64,000 bases of DNA from Escherichia coli (GCF_024223415.1 NZ_CP100500.1), one strand, 5' to 3'; shown: positions 18,232-46,717, counted from the first letter of the stretch. Program-made: numbers and translations. Notes: a model not told the origin generated them from the sequence alone.

Positions 18232-18894
18232 TCAGTACGCATCATAAATTTCTGCATTTATGTAATAACAGAGGTTATTAACAACACCTGAATTATCATT
18301 GGGCGCCGCTACGTTATCTTCAGCAAAAGTTGACTGACGCCATAACTGTGAGTTTCTGGCATTAAAACTGGCGGTATACCAGTAATAACTCTCCCCTTCC
18401 TGAACTGTCGTCCACTGGGTACACCCCGGCATTACGGCCACATCATGTCCCACACTGATCGGTACATCCTTTTCCCATATTCGCGTCATTTTTACTTCCA
18501 GTGGCAGCATTTCCGTGTTCCAGACCACCCTGCCATGACTGTCGCACAACTGTATTCCCCATTGCGGCCATACATTCACCATGTTGGCAAAAACATAAAC
18601 AACATATGTGCTGTCCTGTTCCATGCCCGGCTCCTGCCCTGTACCAGCGCTGAAAATGTCATACTGCCAGGTACCGTTAAGCTGAACCATTTCACCATGG
18701 AAGGACTGATTACCGCTTATCTGTTTAATAAAAATCACGCAACGATAATTCGTCGGCACCCCAGTGTCGATAAACTGCATCACCGCATCACGCGCACTCA
18801 GTGTGAAATGAAAACGGCGCACAAGGTTCAGTGGCGGCGCAACAGGTGATATCCATTCTCTCCCCCGCTCATCAGTTAATTTAAGTGCAAACAT
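18232..18894 (-). CDS. Hypothetical protein, translationally coupled downstream of J
   Basis: 220 aa ORF; start overlaps upstream ORF stop. Confidence 0.55.
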   Translation of the reverse strand: MFALKLTDERGREWISPVAPPLNLVRRFHFTLSARDAVMQFIDTGVPTNYRCVIFIKQISGNQSFHGEMVQLNGTWQYDIFSAGTGQEPGMEQDSTYVVYVFANMVNVWPQWGIQLCDSHGRVVWNTEMLPLEVKMTRIWEKDVPISVGHDVAVMPGCTQWTTVQEGESYYWYTASFNARNSQLWRQSTFAEDNVAAPNDNSGVVNNLCYYINAEIYDAY

Positions 18895-19154
18895 CAGATC
18901 CCCCTTATCATGACCAGCACGGGTCTTAACCAGCTTGTGTTGGCATAGTGCACTGTCCAGCCGGATACACTGGCACTGGTATGACTTCCCTGACCGTTAA
19001 TCAGAATGGCCGGTGAACAGACTTCCAGACGCCAGCCCTGCAAAGGAGTATAAGAACGCTGCCCCGTCCCTTCAGTGATCACATCCAGCACCCCTGTTGG
19101 GTTTATTTCATGTGTCACAAGGCGCCCTTTGCGCCATACCCGGACTCCGAACAT
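18894..19154 (-). CDS. Hypothetical protein immediately downstream of J
   Basis: 86 aa ORF; start overlaps J stop. Confidence 0.45.
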   Translation of the reverse strand: MFGVRVWRKGRLVTHEINPTGVLDVITEGTGQRSYTPLQGWRLEVCSPAILINGQGSHTSASVSGWTVHYANTSWLRPVLVMIRGI

Positions 19155-22100
19155 TACAGTCTCCCCAGTCGTACTCTTAACACATTGTTATCGTCATATA
19201 CGTCGATTCGCTCGCCATTGAAAAACAGGCGGCCTGCGCCGGGCCTTCCTGAGTTAATTTCAAGGCTGCCGTTTCTTGATAAACGCCACCCCGGACTACC
19301 GGAATGAAAATTATCTGACCGGATATCTCCCGTCACTCTGGCAAAATCCACGGTCAGTTTTTTCATGAAAACATCATTCATGAACAGCTGATCACCCTGA
19401 GCCACAAACAAAGGTGTTGTATTGCCATTTTCCGGGTTAATCATCGCAATACGATCTGCCTGCATCAGGATCTGACTCTGAATTCCGTCAGACGTATTTT
19501 CGATTCCGGCACCAATACCTGCAATATAGAGACGTCCATCCCGTGTCTGCTGCAGCTTCACAGCCCACATGCTGTTCAGGTTCCGGCGCGTGTCCTCCTG
19601 AACTTTCTGTATCTGCTCAATGCTGGCATTCCAGGATCCCAGTTTTTTATCCGTGCTCTGTGTGATCTGACTTCCCTTATCATCAACATACTGTCTGATC
19701 TGCGCTATCTGTCGGCTGTTCTCCTCCGTGCTCCTGCTTACTGTCTGCCGGATTTCGCTTCCCATCCTGTCAACTTTTCTGTCAACTTCCGCAATGGCCA
19801 TTGACTGTTCAGCGCTCTTTTTCGCCACAACAGTACTTATTTGCGCACTTTTATCATCAACATACTGCCTGACCTGCGCTATCTGTCGGCTGTTCTCCTC
19901 CGTGCTCCTGCTCACTGTCTGCCGGATTTCACTGCTCACGCTGTCAACTTTCCTGTCGACTTTCGCAATGGCCAGCGACTGTTCACCGCTCTTTTTCGCC
20001 ACCAGTTCCGTTATGCTGTTTTCAGACGCCGTGATTTTTTTCGTCACCTCTGCGATATCACGCTCCGCACGCTGCCTCACATCTTTCTCCAGCTGCGTCA
20101 TTTCGCGGTTAATCGCATTCTCCAGTTGCTCAACTTCAGTGCGCCGTGCAGAGGCATCAATGCGTTCATTGATCTCCCGTCCCAGATGCGTTTTATTTAT
20201 CGCCCCCCTGAAAAAATTAAGGTAACCGGCAGGATCATTACTCGCCCGACCGACTGCCTCCACGAATGCCGATTTACCGACAGTGTTAACACTGCGGATA
20301 TAAAAGTAATAATCATGGCCAGGTTTAATATTCTGGCCGGAGACAAGCCACTGACTTCCGGTACCAAGATAACGGGCTGTGGTTTCAACCTGCCTGATAT
20401 CGGTAATCCGCGTTTCCGAGAACCAGAACTCAAACTGTACCGTCGGATCGTAAACCGCAAGATGCGGCGTGGCGGTTATCTGAAAATAGCCCGGCGTCAG
20501 CTCAATCCGCGACGGCGCTGCCGGTGCGGCAATCCGGAACGATACCGACGCCGGGTCTCCCTGCTGCCCCCGGGCATTTACTGCCCGGACTGTCAGCCTG
20601 TAGTTCCCCGGCGCCAGCTGCCTGAAGCGGTATGTGGTTTCCGTCGTCCGGGCCGTGCTGACCAGCCGCTCACTGCCATCATCCGCGGCCACGGTCAGGC
20701 GAAGCAGGAAGCTCACGCCCTTCACCACCTTCGGCGTGTCCCAGCGCGCCAGCACCTGATATTCCCCGCTGTCTGCGGTGACTTCTGCGGTCAGGTGCTG
20801 CACCGCTGGCGGCGTGACACCATTCACCGTTCCGCTCTGGTCGCCGTCAAAGTGCGCCCCGTTATCCACGATGGCCTCTTTTTCCGGTACATGCTGCACG
20901 GCAGTGATGGCATACGTGCCGTCGTCGTTCTCACGGATACTCACGCAGCGGAACAGGCGCTGGCGCAGCGTCGGCAGCTTCAGCCCCCACACGCTGTACT
21001 CGGCAACGCCGTCAGGAACCCGGCTCACTTTTACCTTCACGCCGTCGGTGACGGACTGAACCTCCACGCTGACCGGATTGCCACTTCCGTCAACCAGACT
21101 TATCAGCGTGGTACCGGAGGATGGCAGCGTGATTTCACGGTCGAGCGTCAGCGTCCGGGTCTGGCTGTTCACCGCCAGCACACGACCACCGGTGCTGATA
21201 CCGGCATAGTCATCATCACAGATTTCAATGACATCGCCCGGTACATGGCGAAGCCCTTCAGCACCCACGCTGAAATCCACGGTCTGCGTCTCCAGCAGTT
21301 CTGTTTTAATCAGCCACAGCCCGGCGCGGTGTGCCTGCCCCCGGCTGGTACAGCCAAAGGCATCCATCTTCGTGACGTTACGACCGTAACGGGCAATGGC
21401 CTGCGTGTCCTCCACAAGCTCTGTCGCCGTCTCCTGGCCGTTATCCGGGTCACTCCAGTTCACCTCAACGGCATTATGGCGGTCCTTCAGGGCGCTGAAG
21501 CTGTAGCGGAACGGCGCGCCATCATCCGGCATCACCACATTACTGCGGTTATAGGTCCACACCTTATCCGACGGTCGGTCCTGCACGAACGTCAGCGTCT
21601 GCCCGTTCCATACCGGCATACAGCGCATCGCCGAGCAGAAATCACTGAGCACATCCCACGCCTTACGCTGCCTGGTCAGCCAGGCATTACAGGTGATGCG
21701 CGGCTCCGTGCCACCAGAGCCGTCCGGCACCGACTGGTCGCAGTACTGGCCGATGACATACAGCGCCCATTTGTCCACATCCGCTGCGCCAACACGTTTC
21801 CCCATGCCGTAGCGCGGGTGGGTCAGCATATCCCACAGACACCAGGCCGGGTTATCGCTGTATGCCGGTTTAAACGTTCCGTCCCAGATACCGCTGTATT
21901 GCCGCGTCTGCGGGTTATAGTTCGACGGCACCTGCAGAATGCGCCCGCGAAGATGATAATTACGGCTCACCTGCTGGCTGCCGAACTGCTCCGAATCCAC
22001 CTGCACACCGACCAGTGCCGTGTTCGGGTAGCACTGTTTCACATCGATGATTTCGGTGTATGACGACCAGAGCGTTTTGTTCTGCAGCTGGTCTGTGGTG

Positions 22101-22663
22101 CTGTCCGGCGTCATCCTGCGCATCCGGATACTGAACGGGCGCGGCGGCAGGTTACCCACCACCACCGGGGCCAGATACTGCGAGGTGGTTTTGCCCTTAA
22201 TGGTGATGTCTTTTTCCGTTAACCAGCGACCGTTACGCTGTATCTGAACCAGCAGGCGGACTTCCGACGGATTCCGGTCCCCCTTTGAGGTGGTTTCCAC
22301 CAGTGCCTGCACACCGAAGGTCAGGCGCAGACGGTCGATGTTTGCCGACGTGATGGTCCGGGTAATCGGCGTGTCGTACTTCACTTCCGTACCCAGCACC
22401 GTCTCGGAGCCGGAGGATTCAAATCCCTCCGGCGGCGTCTGCTCCTGCTCACCGGCCCGGAATACCACCGTGACGCCGGATATATTGGTATTCCCCTCAC
22501 TGTCCAGCACCGGCGTACCGTTCAGCAGCACGCTTTTTAATCCATCCACCGGTCCTTGTATCGGCCCTTCGCTGATGACATCGATCACACTCAGCAACTG
22601 CGTGGACTTCAGGTTGTCCTTCGCTTCGCGCGGGGTATGCCCCTTACTGCTGCCTTTACCCAT
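19154..22663 (-). CDS. Host specificity / central tail fibre protein J
   Basis: 1169 aa; lambda gpJ-like N-terminal and fibronectin-like regions; internal duplicated coiled-coil segment. Confidence 0.9.
19690..19995. repeat. About 150-bp tandem duplication inside J (encodes repeated ..AKKSxEQSxAIAxVDRKVD..[28 protein letters not shown].. segment)
   Basis: Two near-identical adjacent copies visible in DNA and protein. Confidence 0.8.
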
Positions 22664-22729: not shown

Positions 22730-23068
22730 TTATTTACATGCATTAACACTATCAGCAAAAATTTTTGGCGTTAATGCTGGTACGCGTTCATAAAGAGTAA
22801 AACTACTGCCATTTCCTGCTTTTTTGATATCAAGCACAACATCATACCCACCCATAGCCTGTGGAACTAAAAGGCTTACCCCATTCTCAATAGGAATGGA
22901 TGTTATAGGTGTTCCATTACCAGCCCATTGTCTGGATATGCAGCCTGACAATTCATCAATATTTTTTAATGAATTACCTTCCATTACAGGCTTGCCGGAT
23001 TTTACGTAATCCAAAGATTTACATCCTGTTAAGGCAATAATCGTGCAGAATAAAATCGTTTTGTTCAT
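22730..23068 (-). CDS. Lipoprotein (moron) inserted between tail genes I and J
   Basis: ATG at 23068 gives 112 aa starting MNKTILFCTIIALTGC (lipobox); AT-rich relative to flanking tail genes. Confidence 0.6.
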   Translation of the reverse strand: MNKTILFCTIIALTGCKSLDYVKSGKPVMEGNSLKNIDELSGCISRQWAGNGTPITSIPIENGVSLLVPQAMGGYDVVLDIKKAGNGSSFTLYERVPALTPKIFADSVNACK

Positions 23069-23140: not shown

Positions 23141-23782
23141 TTACCGCCCAATTACCACAACCTGACCACCATCCCCTTCATCTGCCGTGCTAATCTCCTG
23201 AGATGCCACACGTGACCCCACGCGCATTTCACCGTACAGAACAGGCAGGACATTGCCCTGGGCAACCATGTTATCCAATGAGGAAAAATAGGTATTTTGC
23301 TTACCGTTATCAGTGGCTGACACTTTAGGCGTTTTGGCTTTCGGTGCCAGCATCTGCGCAACACCGCCTAAAACCATACCTGCCCCAAGAGAGAACATGA
23401 GATTACTTGCAACAATACTAAGCCCCGGCATCCAGATTGCCGTAGCAATTAGCGCCGCACCCAGCACTGCCTGAAAAATACCGCCACTTTTGGCACCCGC
23501 CAGACGCGGTACGATGTGGATCACGGCACCATTTGCCAGCGGCTCATTAAGACGGGCAGATAATTCGTTTTCGCCTGCATCACGCCCGGCAATGCGCACC
23601 TGATACCAGCCGTCATTCAGTTTCTGACGAAACGCCGGGAGCTGTGTGGCCAGTGCCCGGATGGCTTCAGCCCCCGTTTTCACACGAAGGTCGATGCGGC
23701 GGCCAAATCGTTGCAAATCCCCGTAAAGGCAGATGCGTGCCATGCCCGGTGACGCCTGAGGGAGTGTGTGCGTCGCTGCCAT
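23141..23782 (-). CDS. Tail assembly protein I
   Basis: 213 aa; lambda gpI-like; overlaps K. Confidence 0.85.
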   Translation of the reverse strand: MAATHTLPQASPGMARICLYGDLQRFGRRIDLRVKTGAEAIRALATQLPAFRQKLNDGWYQVRIAGRDAGENELSARLNEPLANGAVIHIVPRLAGAKSGGIFQAVLGAALIATAIWMPGLSIVASNLMFSLGAGMVLGGVAQMLAPKAKTPKVSATDNGKQNTYFSSLDNMVAQGNVLPVLYGEMRVGSRVASQEISTADEGDGGQVVVIGR

Positions 23783-39494: not shown

Positions 39495-39821
39495 TCAGGG
39501 ACGTGATGGCGTAAAGATAAATTGTCTCTTCACTCCCTGACGGGGACTATTCTTTTCAAATCTCCATTTCGCCATGGCCTTCACCACTTCATCACGAAAC
39601 AAATTATGAGGCTCTGAGCGGAGAAAAACGATCCGTGTCACAGTCCCGTCAGCACCAATATCGAACTTAACCTCAACCAGCCCCTTGATATAATTTGCTG
39701 CAGCATATTCCGGATATCGTGGATACACCGTCACTAATTGCCGGGGCTCATCAGCTTTTTGCTGCGAGCATCCCACTGCCAGGGCAGATAACAGAAAAAG
39801 TAGTGAAAGGCGTCTTTTCAT
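39495..39821 (-). CDS. Lipoprotein consisting of a TonB C-terminal-like domain
   Basis: ATG at 39821 (AGGA RBS) gives 108 aa: lipobox LAVGC then ..YPRYPEYAAANYIKGLVEVKFDIGADGTVTRIVFLRS.. resembling TonB_C. Confidence 0.6.
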   Translation of the reverse strand: MKRRLSLLFLLSALAVGCSQQKADEPRQLVTVYPRYPEYAAANYIKGLVEVKFDIGADGTVTRIVFLRSEPHNLFRDEVVKAMAKWRFEKNSPRQGVKRQFIFTPSRP

Positions 39822-43070: not shown

Positions 43071-43097
43071 AAAAAAACCCGCTTGTGGGCGGGTTTT
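43071..43097 (-). terminator. Late-operon terminator tR' (target of Q antitermination)
   Basis: CCCGC-CACAA-GCGGG stem followed by U7 on minus strand, about 70-90 nt downstream of Q-like gene. Confidence 0.65.
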
Positions 43098-43160
43098 GTT
43101 TGCTTTTGCCATCACGTACAAAATCGGCAAAATATCAGATTTGCATGAAATATATGCCTT

Positions 43161-43856
43161 TCAATCTACTTTTGCAACACTTTGCTTTGAAAATGCCGCC
43201 TTTTGTTTTGAACGTGTTCTCATTACAAACAATAAAGCCTCACTATCCAGTCGGTGAAAAATGTGTTTCATTGCAACCCAGTGACGAGTAAATGTTTTGG
43301 ACCAGTTTTTAGTTGTCACTCCCGCCAGTAATGCCAGCTCCTGGTATTCATAACTTTCCCCACCAAAAAGTTCTGCTTTTACTGCCTGCGCCGCCAGCCA
43401 GATTAATTTTTTCAGGCGTTCCTGCGTTTTCCCTGCAATTTTTCTGGTACCTGATTGAGTATTAAATTCATTCCACGCCCACTGTGTTATCGCGATCTGA
43501 TATTCCCAACAAATACTCCCGCTGTAACTCCACAACAACCAGGCTTTATGATGTTCTTCAAGAGACAGAACAGCCCGCCGCCACGATGATGTCGAAAACT
43601 CAACCGGGCTGACCAGGGCAATTGATGAGCCTTTCGCCAGTGATTGTTTTCCCGGGATTGGTGGATTATCCCGCGTTATCATTTTTCCAGTCACTTCATC
43701 GCGGTACCGGATTTTTTTACGCCTGTAACGCCCTGTATCAAACATGGCATTCTCCTGCCAGGCCTCAAGCTGCCCTTTTGTTGATCCACTCAAATCGGCG
43801 GTGGCAATCATGAGTTGCTGACGAACAAACTGTAAATACTGGTTATTCATGCGCAC
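43161..43856 (-). CDS. Putative late-gene antiterminator Q (QuuQ/YdfT-like)
   Basis: 231 aa; sits downstream of rusA and DUF968 gene and upstream of tR' and lysis genes, as QuuQ in Qin prophage. Confidence 0.55.
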   Translation of the reverse strand: MRMNNQYLQFVRQQLMIATADLSGSTKGQLEAWQENAMFDTGRYRRKKIRYRDEVTGKMITRDNPPIPGKQSLAKGSSIALVSPVEFSTSSWRRAVLSLEEHHKAWLLWSYSGSICWEYQIAITQWAWNEFNTQSGTRKIAGKTQERLKKLIWLAAQAVKAELFGGESYEYQELALLAGVTTKNWSKTFTRHWVAMKHIFHRLDSEALLFVMRTRSKQKAAFSKQSVAKVD

Positions 43857-44212
43857 TCCAGTTCTGTGATTTTTATCCCCAACCGCCCACCAGGAACAAG
43901 CTGACCGCGCACAATATTAATTTCATCAAACTGCTCGTCGTCTATGAGCAGCCCAGCATGCGTCAGTGCATCCAGTGGTGCCTTCAGGATATTGTCCAGG
44001 TCACGACGGCGCTTATCCGGTGGCTCTGCAATAATTTTTATTGCCAGCCTTCCTGACAGGTTTAATTTCAGTCGCTGCTGGCGAACAATAAGCGCCACAT
44101 CACGGCGATAACGCTCACCGGCTTTTGATACAAAATATGTGCTGCCACGACGTCGCCAGTAGGTATTCACCGTCGGCGGGTAAGGCAAAACAAATTCTAT
44201 GCGTTCAGTCAT
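43847..44212 (-). CDS. rusA: Holliday junction resolvase RusA
   Basis: 121 aa; ..PDKRRRDLDNILKAPLDALTHAGLLIDDEQ.. matches RusA. Confidence 0.9.
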   Translation of the reverse strand: MTERIEFVLPYPPTVNTYWRRRGSTYFVSKAGERYRRDVALIVRQQRLKLNLSGRLAIKIIAEPPDKRRRDLDNILKAPLDALTHAGLLIDDEQFDEINIVRGQLVPGGRLGIKITELECA

Positions 44213-45268
44213 TCATGCTTTCCACTTCAGGACACCCGAATTTCTCGCGTGCATTAAAAAACGAATCAGCAACAACAGCTGGCTGCCGTGTTTTTCTTCA
44301 AAATCTTTTACCCCGGCGTGCAGTTCGTTATGACATTTACGGCACAGCGGAATAACAAACAAATCATCAGCCTTTGTTCCCATCCCTCCCAGTCCATGAC
44401 CAATGATGTGATGCGGATCATCTGCCTGATTACCGCACGTCATGCATTTCTGCGTTTTTACCCAGCGCGTGTATACAGGCATCTCTTCCCGTTGTGGTTT
44501 CTGGCGCTGGAGATACTGAGCCGGTGACTCCGGATCAACGGCAATGCTGACCACCGCCTCTTCCTGTGGCGGGTTTTGCTGGTGGGCGTGAGGCAGCGGC
44601 GCAAGATTTTTTGTGCGCTGCTTCAGTATGCTGGTGGCGGTCTGCTCTCCCGGTACGATGTCGCTTTCACGGTACATTGAGCGGATTTTTTCCGCACGCA
44701 ACCCCAGCGAACGACGTAATACCGCTTCCGGTAGCGCGTCCGCCACCTGATTGCGGACCGCCCACCAGGATAATTCAGCCAGAGATAATTCACGCTCCTG
44801 CGTACCGCTTATTGCGTGACCGATGACGTCAATCATCCATGCTGACAGGTTTTGATGAGCAAGTTGCTCGAGTGATTCGGATGTCTGGTCACGCAGCTGG
44901 TTGTCGCAGTGCCAGCACAACACCATCGCGCCGGTACCGTAACGATGTATGACGATTTCACTGTGATGATAGTCACCATGAGGCCACTGGCAGGATTTGA
45001 CATGACGCAACAGCCAGTCAGACAGTGCCCCAGCGCCGCCAACAGCACGAATCACCCGATCATCGCTGAAAAATGGCAGTAATGATTTATCCTCCGCCAG
45101 CGGCTGGCGAACGGCAGGGACGACTCCGGATGGCAGGCCGCACGTACTTTTCGGTTCCGGCTCCACCAGCACTCGAGGATTGTGAAATACCGGCATGGAT
45201 TCACGACCGGGCTTAAGGACCACCAGCCCGAGTTCCGGTACCAGAACAGGTCGAAGTAATACCCGCAC
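44213..45268 (-). CDS. DUF968 family protein (YdfU-like) with C-terminal HNH-like Cys/His motif
   Basis: 351 aa; C-terminal CMTCG..HHIIGHG..CRKCHNELH. Confidence 0.7.
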   Translation of the reverse strand: MRVLLRPVLVPELGLVVLKPGRESMPVFHNPRVLVEPEPKSTCGLPSGVVPAVRQPLAEDKSLLPFFSDDRVIRAVGGAGALSDWLLRHVKSCQWPHGDYHHSEIVIHRYGTGAMVLCWHCDNQLRDQTSESLEQLAHQNLSAWMIDVIGHAISGTQERELSLAELSWWAVRNQVADALPEAVLRRSLGLRAEKIRSMYRESDIVPGEQTATSILKQRTKNLAPLPHAHQQNPPQEEAVVSIAVDPESPAQYLQRQKPQREEMPVYTRWVKTQKCMTCGNQADDPHHIIGHGLGGMGTKADDLFVIPLCRKCHNELHAGVKDFEEKHGSQLLLLIRFLMHARNSGVLKWKA

Positions 45269-45269
45269 G

Positions 45270-45623
45270 TTACCTCCAGATCCGTTGCTGGAATGTGCGG
45301 GACGGACGCGGTGGGCGTTCGGAGTAAGGAAGCCTGACGGAGATTATCCAGTGACGATAATCGAGGCTGAGGGCTTTCTTAATCTCGTATCCGTGTCTGC
45401 GGTAACACTGAATCAGCCATTCGGCCTGTTCTTCAGTGCATGGAGGGTGTTGGTACCAGTCGGTTTTAAATACGCGAGAACGCCGCCCATGCCTGCTGGC
45501 ACGAACGGCATCAGAATTGTGATTTTTGGTATTGTGCGCCATTTGTTTTCTCTGCTGGCGCAGCAGGTGCCAGTTGTTCAGGCTAGCGTGCAGATTGTAA
45601 ACCAGAATTCCCGGAAAAAACAA
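45270..45623 (-). CDS. Hypothetical nin-region protein
   Basis: 117 aa ORF abutting DUF968 gene. Confidence 0.45.
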   Translation of the reverse strand: MFFPGILVYNLHASLNNWHLLRQQRKQMAHNTKNHNSDAVRASRHGRRSRVFKTDWYQHPPCTEEQAEWLIQCYRRHGYEIKKALSLDYRHWIISVRLPYSERPPRPSRTFQQRIWR

Positions 45624-45734
45624 AACTCGCTCAGGCTGGTATGCTAATCATCACAGTCATGTTTGATGGGGTTAGCTCACATTGGGTGAGGGTTCACGGC
45701 GTTTTCACTAATAATTTACCGTCCCCGCTATACA

Positions 45735-46127
45735 CTACTGCCCAGTTCTAACGAAGTTTTTGAAGGAAACAACTGCCTGATAGAGGTTTGGTTGACAGCC
45801 AAACATATTATCGCAAAAAGGCTGGATGAAAATTCTTGAGGATCCATCTTCATTTGGCATTTTACTCACTTGATAAGCGAGGAGTGGACTATTTGGTGAG
45901 GGGTTATAAGTGGAAATTAGCGTGTCTGTCGCCGTTTGAATTTTCCATGCGGAATTATTAGCCAACCAGAATTGCGCGCGTTTCCAATAAAAGTCACATT
46001 GCTTTTCATCTTTACATGTTAGTGGCTTCATTGCTTCTGCTTTCAACGCAGGATCGACCTTTGCTGCACACCCTCCCAACATTACTGTTGCAATCATTAC
46101 ACCTGCAACTAAAACAAGTTTCTTCAT
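45735..46127 (-). CDS. Lipoprotein (nin-region cargo)
   Basis: 130 aa; MKKLVLVAGVMIATVMLGGC lipobox; six further Cys. Confidence 0.65.
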   Translation of the reverse strand: MKKLVLVAGVMIATVMLGGCAAKVDPALKAEAMKPLTCKDEKQCDFYWKRAQFWLANNSAWKIQTATDTLISTYNPSPNSPLLAYQVSKMPNEDGSSRIFIQPFCDNMFGCQPNLYQAVVSFKNFVRTGQ

Positions 46128-46270
46128 CTCCCTGCCCCCATCAGTAAAAGTTCGGTTCTCTGATAACTAGAGTTAATCAACGGAAAAACGCCGAAGCGGG
46201 TTAAGTGTGGGTGCATTGAGGATGCCTGACTCATCAGAGGTGGCGAGGGATTTCTCCCTCGCCTGGTCTC

Positions 46271-46426
46271 TTACTCCTCAGGTTCGTAAGCTGTGAAGAC
46301 AGCGACCTCCGTCTGGCCGGTTCGGATTCGTACCTCGCAGAGGTCTTTCCTCGTTACCAGTGCCGTCACAATGACGGTAATACAGATGACGATCAGGGCG
46401 ACTAACATCGCCTTTTGCTGCTTCAT
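46271..46426 (-). CDS. hok: Hok/Gef family type I toxin
   Basis: 51 aa MKQQKAMLVALIVICITVIVTALVTRKDLCEVRIRTGQTEVAVFTAYEPEE, nearly identical to remembered HokD/RelF. Confidence 0.88.
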   Translation of the reverse strand: MKQQKAMLVALIVICITVIVTALVTRKDLCEVRIRTGQTEVAVFTAYEPEE

Positions 46427-46717
46427 AGCCTGCTTCTCCTTGCCTTTCGGCACGTAAGAGGCTAACCTAGATTTGCCGTTCATAGATTGAGCCTCAGATT
46501 AATGTTAAGCGTCTTGCCGGACGCGTAATGTTAACTGGGGCTTTTCTCTATCTGCCTTTTGGGGTTCATGCCTGAGACAGATAGCCTCAAGCACCCGCTG
46601 CAATTCTACTTAACTCTCCTTTTCCCGCAAACCATTTTTATCCCCAGCGGCAAATCGAATACACCACCAGCGCCACCGCCATCGCAATTCCTACCGTTGT
46701 GAATGCTTCAGGCCAGG

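Follow-up and report, generated by a model that had tools for sequence, protein, structure and literature searches.

A mobile lipoprotein cargo gene behind hok in an Escherichia coli prophage and its large family of uncharacterized relatives

We analyzed a 64,000-nucleotide stretch of the Escherichia coli genome GCF_024223415.1 (NZ_CP100500.1), hereafter the window, and in it a gene of a lambda-like prophage, coding for a 130-residue lipoprotein, that lies behind the toxin gene hok (coordinates in Table 1, counted from the first letter of the window). This open reading frame (ORF) is a genuine gene, kept by purifying selection, and it is a horizontally mobile cargo cassette, not a conserved gene of the nin region. 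It is of an ordinary kind, a prophage moron for an envelope lipoprotein, in a large uncharacterized family whose genomic contexts are unusually suggestive. As to function, we tentatively favor a role in the periplasm, in the exclusion of superinfecting phages.

Direct translation gives a product whose N-terminus reads MKKLVLVAGVMIATVMLGGC, exactly as in the first-pass annotation of the window, and RefSeq annotates the identical 393-bp coding sequence in other E. coli genomes. The exact protein is present on at least 1000 public contigs. Comparison with E. coli alleles gives a ratio of nonsynonymous to synonymous substitution rates (dN/dS) of 0.22-0.38; when an 81%-identical Pantoea-type homologue is compared, the proportion of differences at synonymous sites (pS) is 0.93, i.e. 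saturated, and that at nonsynonymous sites (pN) is 0.11. The 90%-identity cluster that contains the protein has 1,137 members, a number not usable as a count of the lipoprotein because many Hok-family toxins are mixed in, presumably as a clustering artefact of fused or partial gene calls spanning hok and the lipoprotein gene.

The slot between hok and the next gene downstream, phrog_1212, is variable. It is empty in the otherwise collinear phage 813R8 and holds rem in the ompW prophage of strain Ch1 and in PPompW/Stx2 phages; in an ompW-integrated, rem-bearing relative, 25 kb of DNA from the tail genes to Q are 97% identical to the window, and the hok hairpin stands intact right after hok. The inserted cassette, whose borders are uncertain by about 13 nucleotides owing to repeated hairpin sequence, has a GC content of 41.5%, compared with 50.8% for the whole window and 45.5-54.4% for the five neighboring genes measured. 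A search of 5,426 complete E. coli genomes finds the lipoprotein gene in 254, on the chromosome in all of them, and 2 of 50,697 phage records have it; the order hok, lipoprotein gene, phrog_1212, DUF968, RusA, Q is kept in more than 50 E. coli prophages of IMG/VR. AR_0085 and TUM1886 are examples of lysogens with the gene. Because the slot is variable and the gene rare in genomes and phage records, we regard it as cargo and not as a conserved nin gene. The first-pass annotation had called it a moron, and its presence or absence in collinear phages, its deviating GC content and the recurrence of the same gene and leader in other phage modules and on plasmids agree with that description. Set against the moron definition of Juhala and Hendrix, as summarized in PMC3594210, the presence/absence polymorphism and the deviating GC content are found in the window, and no recognizable promoter or intact terminator of the gene's own is seen. 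Expression from the repressed prophage, also part of that definition, is suggested by context: the hok unit here, and cI or parDE operons in relatives.

In sequence, the hairpin at the 5' end of the cassette is nearly identical to the hok terminator, which makes it an evident place at which recombination could have inserted the cassette in E. coli. The post-hok slot is itself a recombination hot spot, being empty, filled with rem or filled with the lipoprotein cassette. An 18-nucleotide UUCG hairpin, CCCGCTTCGG[C/T]GGGTTTT, borders the cassettes of E. coli, Enterobacter and Pantoea-type phages (46184-46202 in the window; 1829-1846 in locus L003; 37622-37639 in L118), and one further locus, L034, has two hok copies with a hairpin after each.

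The N-terminus follows the pattern of a lipoprotein processed by signal peptidase II (SPII): MKK, then LVLVAGVMIATVM, then LGGC with the cysteine at position 20. The glycine at -2 is compatible with a PROSITE-type lipobox, not with the strict [ASTVI] version. Cys20 is invariant in an alignment of 39 diverse homologues and is the predicted lipidated N-terminus. Alanine occupies both +2 and +3, and there is no Asp retention signal. By the E. coli +2 rule, Asp at +2 is a retention signal in lipoprotein sorting; since the residue here is Ala, Lol-dependent sorting to the outer membrane is predicted. The protein contains five cysteines (C20, C38, C44, C105 and C111), so that four accompany the lipobox cysteine, not six as had been counted earlier. 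Among the 39 homologues, C20, C38, C44 and C105 are invariant and C111 nearly so; the first pair is always spaced CX5C, and the spacing of the second ranges from CX4C to CX6C. On the strength of these spacings we propose two local disulfides, C38-C44 and C105-C111, which probably stabilize the domain.

An AlphaFold model, with a predicted local distance difference test score (pLDDT) above 90 across the mature domain, shows a compact alpha+beta fold in which two long helices pack against an antiparallel sheet of four to five strands. Its best bacterial fold matches are the outer-membrane lipoproteins Flpp3 (DUF3568) and the N-terminal domain of BamC, which have a helix-grip-like alpha+beta fold; the matches are weak and generic, at 10-12% identity, and eukaryotic KA1/AMPK domains match equally well. 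For these reasons the modeled resemblance appears to be one of common fold, with no demonstrable homology. The Pfam hidden Markov models (HMMs) of DUF3568 and BamC (Lipoprotein_18) do not match the protein, and the two conserved CX5-6C pairs are specific to the lipoprotein family and not to BamC or Flpp3. The homology and structure search that the first-pass annotation had recommended did supply a family label, phrog_16082 (of unknown function; residues 1-130 against profile positions 1-130, E 1.4e-81), but no function. No Pfam or NCBIfam family matched at E up to 0.1, and thus none of Bor (PF06291) or of TraT-type serum-resistance lipoproteins; the PADLOC-DB v2 defense HMMs matched neither the window protein nor seven diverse homologues; a sequence search of PDB chains returned just two chance matches (E >0.3). 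Searches of the full-text literature for the gene, its slot or prophage exclusion lipoproteins found no paper on the gene or its family.

A profile search of 1.84 billion cluster representatives yielded 1,277 clusters (at 50% identity) that match the family profile at E<=1e-3; with the threshold at E<=1e-10 there are 601. All family members with a name are called 'hypothetical'. Named hosts are Escherichia, Enterobacter, Pantoea, Phytobacter, Yersinia, Achromobacter, Burkholderiaceae and Cupriavidus. A search with the subfamily alignment added three viral loci and, among 100,044 species-representative genomes, a single locus; so few additions indicate that the family is rare in reference genomes.

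The genomic contexts of the relatives, gathered protein by protein, fall repeatedly among tail genes. In Enterobacter hormaechei, a homologue of 82% identity is located within the tail operon, between the tape-measure gene and gpM, flanked by hairpin terminators. In Pantoea-type phages, homologues separate gpI from gpJ or immediately precede the two, on their upstream side, and one homologue sits between gpK and gpI with a Fic gene adjoining. Despite these different contexts, the regions of about 90 nucleotides upstream of the tail-located homologues align with that of the window, and the leader they share consists of a UUCG hairpin, (A)CCCGCTTCGG[C/T]GGGTTTT, and a ribosome-binding leader, TTTACTGATGGGGATAGGGA. 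At three loci (L131, L061 and L062) the motif TGnTAGGAT reads as an extended -10 element, and intact or strong terminators follow the gene at four (L062, L007, L126 and L131). The tail-located copies look like classical morons composed of hairpin, promoter, gene and terminator.

Repressor genes form another setting. Two homologues (P0024 and P0020) follow a same-strand Peptidase_S24 repressor gene at a distance of 45 bp, a third (P0021) and the stop codon of an HTH_3 repressor gene overlap, and a fourth (P0120) lies within an operon of repressor, HIRAN and lipoprotein genes; a terminator closes the pair of cI and lipoprotein gene. In three Yersinia enterocolitica prophages (L126-L128, 6314-7402), parD, parE and the lipoprotein gene form a unit that ends in a bidirectional terminator, opposes the early-left (pL) genes and lies beside the repressor gene and close to sieB or a Ser/Thr kinase gene. 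With parDE, a second toxin-antitoxin system, after hok, stands directly ahead of a family member. Wherever the lipoprotein gene belongs to an operon it is the final gene, and the promoter ahead of it (cI, parDE or hok) is one that should remain active in the lysogen. Other copies lie in an integrase island beside restriction-modification (RM) and PLD genes, near a reverse transcriptase gene, or beside an integrase gene.

The family also extends to plasmids. WP_032201349.1, 76% identical to the cI-linked P0024, is the near-sole cargo of ColRNAI (ColE1-type) plasmids of 2.5-4 kb in Salmonella, Citrobacter and Enterobacter. Two of them, Citrobacter pIsolateG_G (L134, 2,519 bp) and Salmonella p1559-3 (L135, 3,988 bp), carry rop, mob, WP_032201349.1 and unannotated ORFs of 66-69 residues; the latter, one of which (69 residues) is convergent with the lipoprotein homologue, match no family. 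In about 126 Acinetobacter plasmid records, with sizes of roughly 100-160 kb in the 11 records listed, a signal peptidase I (SPI) signal peptide and a LysM domain replace the lipid anchor; WP_000819256.1 is such a LysM fusion. Other relatives have an added C-terminal PDZ domain, and one is tandemly duplicated.

How the copy in the window is expressed can be read from its surroundings. The first-pass annotation had noted non-coding spacers on both sides, and they are there: one of 143 bp (46128-46270) separates the gene from the stop codon of hok, and one of 186 bp (45549-45734) precedes the start codon of the gene downstream. The independent expression that it took them to suggest is not borne out: a consensus scan around the gene, on its strand, finds no sigma-70 promoter and no intrinsic terminator, the position of the relatives' extended -10-like TGnTAGGAT is occupied by TAGTTATCAG, and both hairpins are decayed. 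At the empty site, the hok terminator has a UUCG loop, ACCCGCTTCGGCGGG followed by a T-run, and a predicted folding energy of -13.9 kcal/mol. The copy behind hok in carriers is without two G of the 3' stem arm (CCCGCTTCGGCG-TTTTT) and is predicted to fold at -5.1 kcal/mol, as an alternative, non-terminator structure; this weakened hairpin is common to nearly all E. coli copies. The terminator copy downstream of the cassette reaches -3.0 kcal/mol in the window, compared with -13.1 in the common E. coli allele. Indeed, 44 of 51 E. coli loci combine the crippled hairpin upstream with an intact terminator downstream, the window representing a minority allele, and this combination argues that hok, lipoprotein gene and terminator make up one unit. 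Because the post-hok hairpin is crippled and no promoter is recognizable, read-through from hok is most likely the source of expression in the lysogen, where the hok mRNA, made constitutively, would extend at its 3' end through the lipoprotein gene. During lytic growth the gene would be transcribed from the antiterminated early (pR) transcript.

Several lines of evidence suggest a selectable function that a single gene exerts in the periplasm: the predicted export, the three kinds of anchor, the units active in the lysogen, the adjacency to tail-tip genes, the position as sole plasmid cargo and the environmental hosts. That one 0.4-kb gene would confer a selectable phenotype alone is suggested likewise by the purifying selection, by the repeated placement with repressor, toxin-antitoxin and tail-tip genes, and by its being the sole cargo of 2.5-4 kb multicopy plasmids. 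Since the core domain occurs with a lipid anchor, with peptidoglycan-binding LysM and with PDZ, the LysM- and PDZ-fused relatives point to action in the periplasm rather than at the surface. Tested exclusion lipoproteins and HK97 gp15 are encoded among tail genes (PMC11893012, PMC3594210, PMC11990801), and the positions of relatives at gpI/gpJ and between tape-measure gene and gpM therefore support exclusion. The tail-cluster lipoproteins Lpp021 and Lpp010 exclude phages in a receptor-specific manner (PMC11893012), as do Cor and Llp (PMC11990801), and HK97 gp15 is a tail-operon moron able to block DNA entry (PMC3594210). We therefore propose, tentatively and as a possibility, that the lipoprotein is a periplasmic superinfection-exclusion factor. 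It would act in the periplasm of the lysogen and block the entry of superinfecting phages. Like Cor and Llp, it could bind an outer-membrane receptor from the periplasmic side; alternatively, in the manner of T4 Spackle or HK97 gp15, it could neutralize the incoming tail tip, its wall-degrading activity or the DNA conduit.

A number of observations weigh against this proposal. No annotation or experiment ties any family member to phage resistance, and no PADLOC model matches. The protein has no homology to Cor, and no sequence or fold similarity to Llp or Spackle was detected. The prophage already has a Cor-like lipoprotein beside gpJ, and a near-identical prophage with the same gpJ carries rem in place of the lipoprotein gene. 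The support from genomic context is guilt by association, without a statistical control. On the side of expression, read-through from hok rests solely on predicted RNA folding, a 3-bp stem with a U-tract may still terminate some transcripts, and the loss of the downstream terminator in the allele of the window could be a sign of decay.

Two of these points were pursued. Homology to Cor was considered and rejected: the match to phrog_1119 has E 0.009 and covers residues 1-44, and hhalign against the Cor-like protein of the window aligns 20 signal-peptide columns at a probability of 22%. A coupling of the E. coli copies to the phage's own receptor-binding protein gpJ was rejected as well, since rem can take the place of the lipoprotein gene under the same gpJ, which indicates that the gene is not tied to the phage's own receptor specificity. 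In the phages that carry the gene beside gpJ, the gpJ C-termini are 55-80% identical to each other and 22-29% identical to that of the window. Given the Cor-like protein already present and the lack of coupling to gpJ, any exclusion would probably be aimed at other phages or at a common step of entry.

The periplasmic exclusion reading can be widened to the family as a whole, although in this broader form we hold it to be doubtful. The family would then be a large unnamed group of single-gene periplasmic exclusion or defense factors, with a BamC/Flpp3-like domain and two conserved disulfide loops that would stop phage entry, or some other attack across the envelope, by a mechanism unlike those of Cor, Llp, Spackle and gp15; typically having a weak promoter or none of their own, its genes would ride on promoters active in the lysogen (cI, parDE, hok). 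Members are spread over prophages of Gamma- and Betaproteobacteria, ColE1-type mini-plasmids and large Acinetobacter plasmids.

Other functions have to be weighed. The lipoprotein could be a conversion factor that serves the fitness or virulence of the host through serum or complement resistance, adhesion, permeability or stress tolerance, in the manner of Bor, Lom or TraT. Consistent with such a role, the protein is predicted to be an outer-membrane lipoprotein, and its prophage bears a YadA-like adhesin and other envelope proteins as well; among the E. coli carriers are isolates from birds, cattle and humans, and one of the closest folds, that of Flpp3, belongs to a Francisella virulence determinant, the other being the BamC N-terminal domain, likewise of an outer-membrane lipoprotein. 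The hosts of the family at large, however, include soil and environmental Beta- and Gammaproteobacteria, a range that argues against a role specific to animal hosts, and overall we find this explanation fairly unlikely. The protein could also protect from competitors instead of phages, as a periplasmic immunity protein or inhibitor directed against a wall- or membrane-targeting toxin (MliC/PliC-like, or of the kind that confers immunity to type VI, colicin or tailocin toxins). Its small size, predicted disulfides and predicted periplasmic or outer-membrane location are compatible with this, the LysM fusion locates the family domain at the peptidoglycan, gpK, with its NlpC/P60 domain, is close to some of the copies in tail modules, and ColE1-type plasmids, which have the family member as sole cargo, are a class that classically bears bacteriocin-related genes. 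On the small plasmids, however, no cognate toxin gene adjoins, the ORFs of 66-69 residues having no family match; the PDB matches include nothing that resembles MliC, PliC, Ivy or known type VI immunity proteins in sequence or fold; and positions behind cI and among tail genes are more typical of functions that pit phage against phage. We judge immunity to a toxin to be unlikely.

The remaining explanations deny the gene a function in the lysogen or place it in the lytic cycle. If it were a silent or decaying passenger in this prophage, the absence of a promoter on its strand, the loss of the relatives' extended -10-like motif and the decay of the downstream terminator, seen only in the minority allele that the window has, would all be accounted for. 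The intact ORF, the occurrence of the exact protein on so many contigs and the dN/dS of 0.22-0.38 speak for a gene in use, and the weakened upstream hairpin, near-universal in E. coli copies, would raise transcription from hok, so that we consider silence quite improbable. A place on the early rightward transcript, with the replication genes on one side and Q on the other, is what a conserved nin or lytic-cycle gene for replication, late control or lysis would have. We nevertheless regard that identity as highly improbable: the gene is missing from most lambdoid phages (see the counts above), close relatives have the slot empty or filled with rem, the product is a predicted exported lipoprotein, and some homologues lie on non-phage plasmids or elsewhere than in nin regions.

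Periplasmic superinfection exclusion, the reading we prefer, invites comparison with known systems. T4 Spackle (Sp) is a small soluble exported periplasmic inhibitor of the tail lysozyme of superinfecting phage. A comparable action is compatible with the LysM-anchored relatives and with the copies near gpK-type tail peptidase genes; Spackle differs in that it is not lipidated, and it is not among the structural neighbors of the window protein, which has no PDB-chain sequence match to it. Cor (phi80/N15/T1), Llp (T5) and Lpp021/Lpp010 (mEpimmI) are accessory genes often found beside the receptor-binding tail gene, and several relatives described here adjoin gpI/gpJ. Cor, Llp and their kin act from the periplasmic side, and Llp has a disulfide (PMC11990801, PMC11893012, bioRxiv 10.64898/2026.03.26.714494). 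With about 60 residues, Cor and Llp differ from the mature alpha+beta protein of about 110 residues studied here and share no homology with it; moreover, the gene in the window lies in the nin region, not beside gpJ, and is uncoupled from gpJ type. The archetypal moron, HK97 gp15, is made by the prophage and mediates superinfection exclusion from a tail operon (PMC3594210). As in the present case, an envelope protein of small size comes from an inserted cassette with deviating GC content (PMC3594210), and the Enterobacter homologue likewise sits between hairpin terminators in a tail operon, by the tape-measure gene. Unlike the lipoprotein, gp15 is a YebO-like inner-membrane protein and is not homologous to it, and the self-contained set of promoter and terminator of a classical moron is absent from the copy in the window. 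Lambda rexAB, P22 sieB and TP-J34 ltp, exclusion genes that are transcribed together with the prophage repressor gene or next to it, recall the four family lineages that stand directly behind a CI-type repressor gene and are closed by a terminator; sieB adjoins the Yersinia copies, and Ltp is also a lipoprotein (PMC3952083). These proteins are unrelated to ours, and the copy in the window lies behind hok, outside the immunity region.

Prophage cargo that acts on the envelope decides which phages, and sometimes which toxins, can still attack the lysogen, and such genes matter for phage therapy, for the ecology of Shiga toxin-producing (STEC) and avian pathogenic (APEC) E. coli and for the search for new defense functions. 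The locus illustrates how recombination at short terminator hairpins carries a cassette from phage to phage and how the cassette can come to depend on the promoter of a neighbor. Should the gene have no phenotype, it would be one more ordinary hypothetical prophage gene.

Table 1. Features of the lipoprotein cassette, its neighbors and other envelope-related genes in the window.
Feature	Position	Strand	Basis or remarks
Lipoprotein ORF, 130 residues, ATG start	45735..46127	minus	ORF listing and translation; phrog_16082 member, no Pfam/NCBIfam family
Signal peptide and lipobox	46068..46127	minus	MKK n-region, 14-residue hydrophobic core, LGGC; read from sequence
Inserted cassette, about 562 bp	45627..46188	minus	61-nucleotide leader, ORF and 108-nucleotide tail; alignment with the empty site of phage 813R8 and two other carriers
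Conserved leader	46128..46183	minus	TTTACTGATGGGGGCAGGGAG purine-rich Shine-Dalgarno region and TAGTTATCAG; leader alignment across unrelated contexts
Degenerate UUCG hairpin and T-run, ACCCGCTTCGGCG-TTTTT	46184..46202	minus	Between hok and lipoprotein gene; alignment
Decayed hok-type terminator copy, ACCAGCCTGAGCGAG and TTTTGTTTTTT	45613..45640	minus	Downstream of cassette; alignment
mok/hok ORF, upstream neighbor	46271..46483	minus	Pfam HOK_GEF, E 1.5e-23
hok/sok regulatory region	46421-46596	minus	Rfam sok RF01794, 112 bits, full-length; upstream neighbor overall 46271..46596
phrog_1212 gene, 92 residues, downstream neighbor	45270..45548	minus	Separates lipoprotein gene from DUF968/YdfU
DUF968/YdfU gene	44213..45268	minus	DUF968 by Pfam
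rusA	43847..44212	minus	
Q antiterminator gene	43161..43856	minus	
Lipoprotein, 112 residues, MNKTILFCTIIALTGC..., phrog_914 (unknown function)	22730-23068	minus	Between gpI (23141..23782) and gpJ (19154..22663)
Cor-like lipoprotein, 81 residues	17965-18210	minus	Full-length phrog_1119 match, E 8e-7; downstream of gpJ
Tail fiber, 601 residues	16087-17892	minus	Largely collagen-like G-x-x repeats
YadA-like trimeric-autotransporter adhesin, 393 residues	13706-14887	minus	Beyond tail-fiber genes
Lipoprotein, 108 residues, near lysis genes	39495-39821	minus	phrog_1267 'Rz-like spanin'
Rz1-type o-spanin candidate, 68 residues	40495-40701	minus	Lipoprotein

The lipoprotein gene shares its strand with hok, DUF968, rusA and Q. 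Its placement between hok and the DUF968 gene in the first-pass annotation holds on the hok side; the adjacency to DUF968 does not, because the phrog_1212 gene, labeled hypothetical or 'toxin to Rem' in other genomes, intervenes. Just downstream of Q (43072-43144, minus strand) lies a sub-threshold match to Rfam IsrK (22.7 bits, gathering threshold 50; E 0.085), which is probably due to chance or a distant relative of the Q-adjacent small-RNA region in Salmonella Gifsy-type phages.

The prophage had also been described as carrying several envelope-targeted small proteins, with this lipoprotein as the third or fourth. As a count this is accurate: the phrog_914 lipoprotein, the Cor-like protein, Rz1, the lysis-region lipoprotein and the YadA-like adhesin are all present. 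The 81-residue Cor-like lipoprotein is a candidate for the prophage's own receptor blocker; its gene follows ORFs (18894-19154 and 18232-18894) for an 86-residue product and a 220-residue 'membrane associated protein' (phrog_425). The phrog_914 lipoprotein was considered as a homologue of the 130-residue lipoprotein and dismissed, the similarity being confined to the signal peptide. In the Pantoea-type locus L061, a phrog_914 member stands directly behind the homologue of the lipoprotein studied here, just upstream of gpI/gpJ. In a related prophage, the ORF at the position of the 108-residue lipoprotein is labeled 'TonB family protein'.

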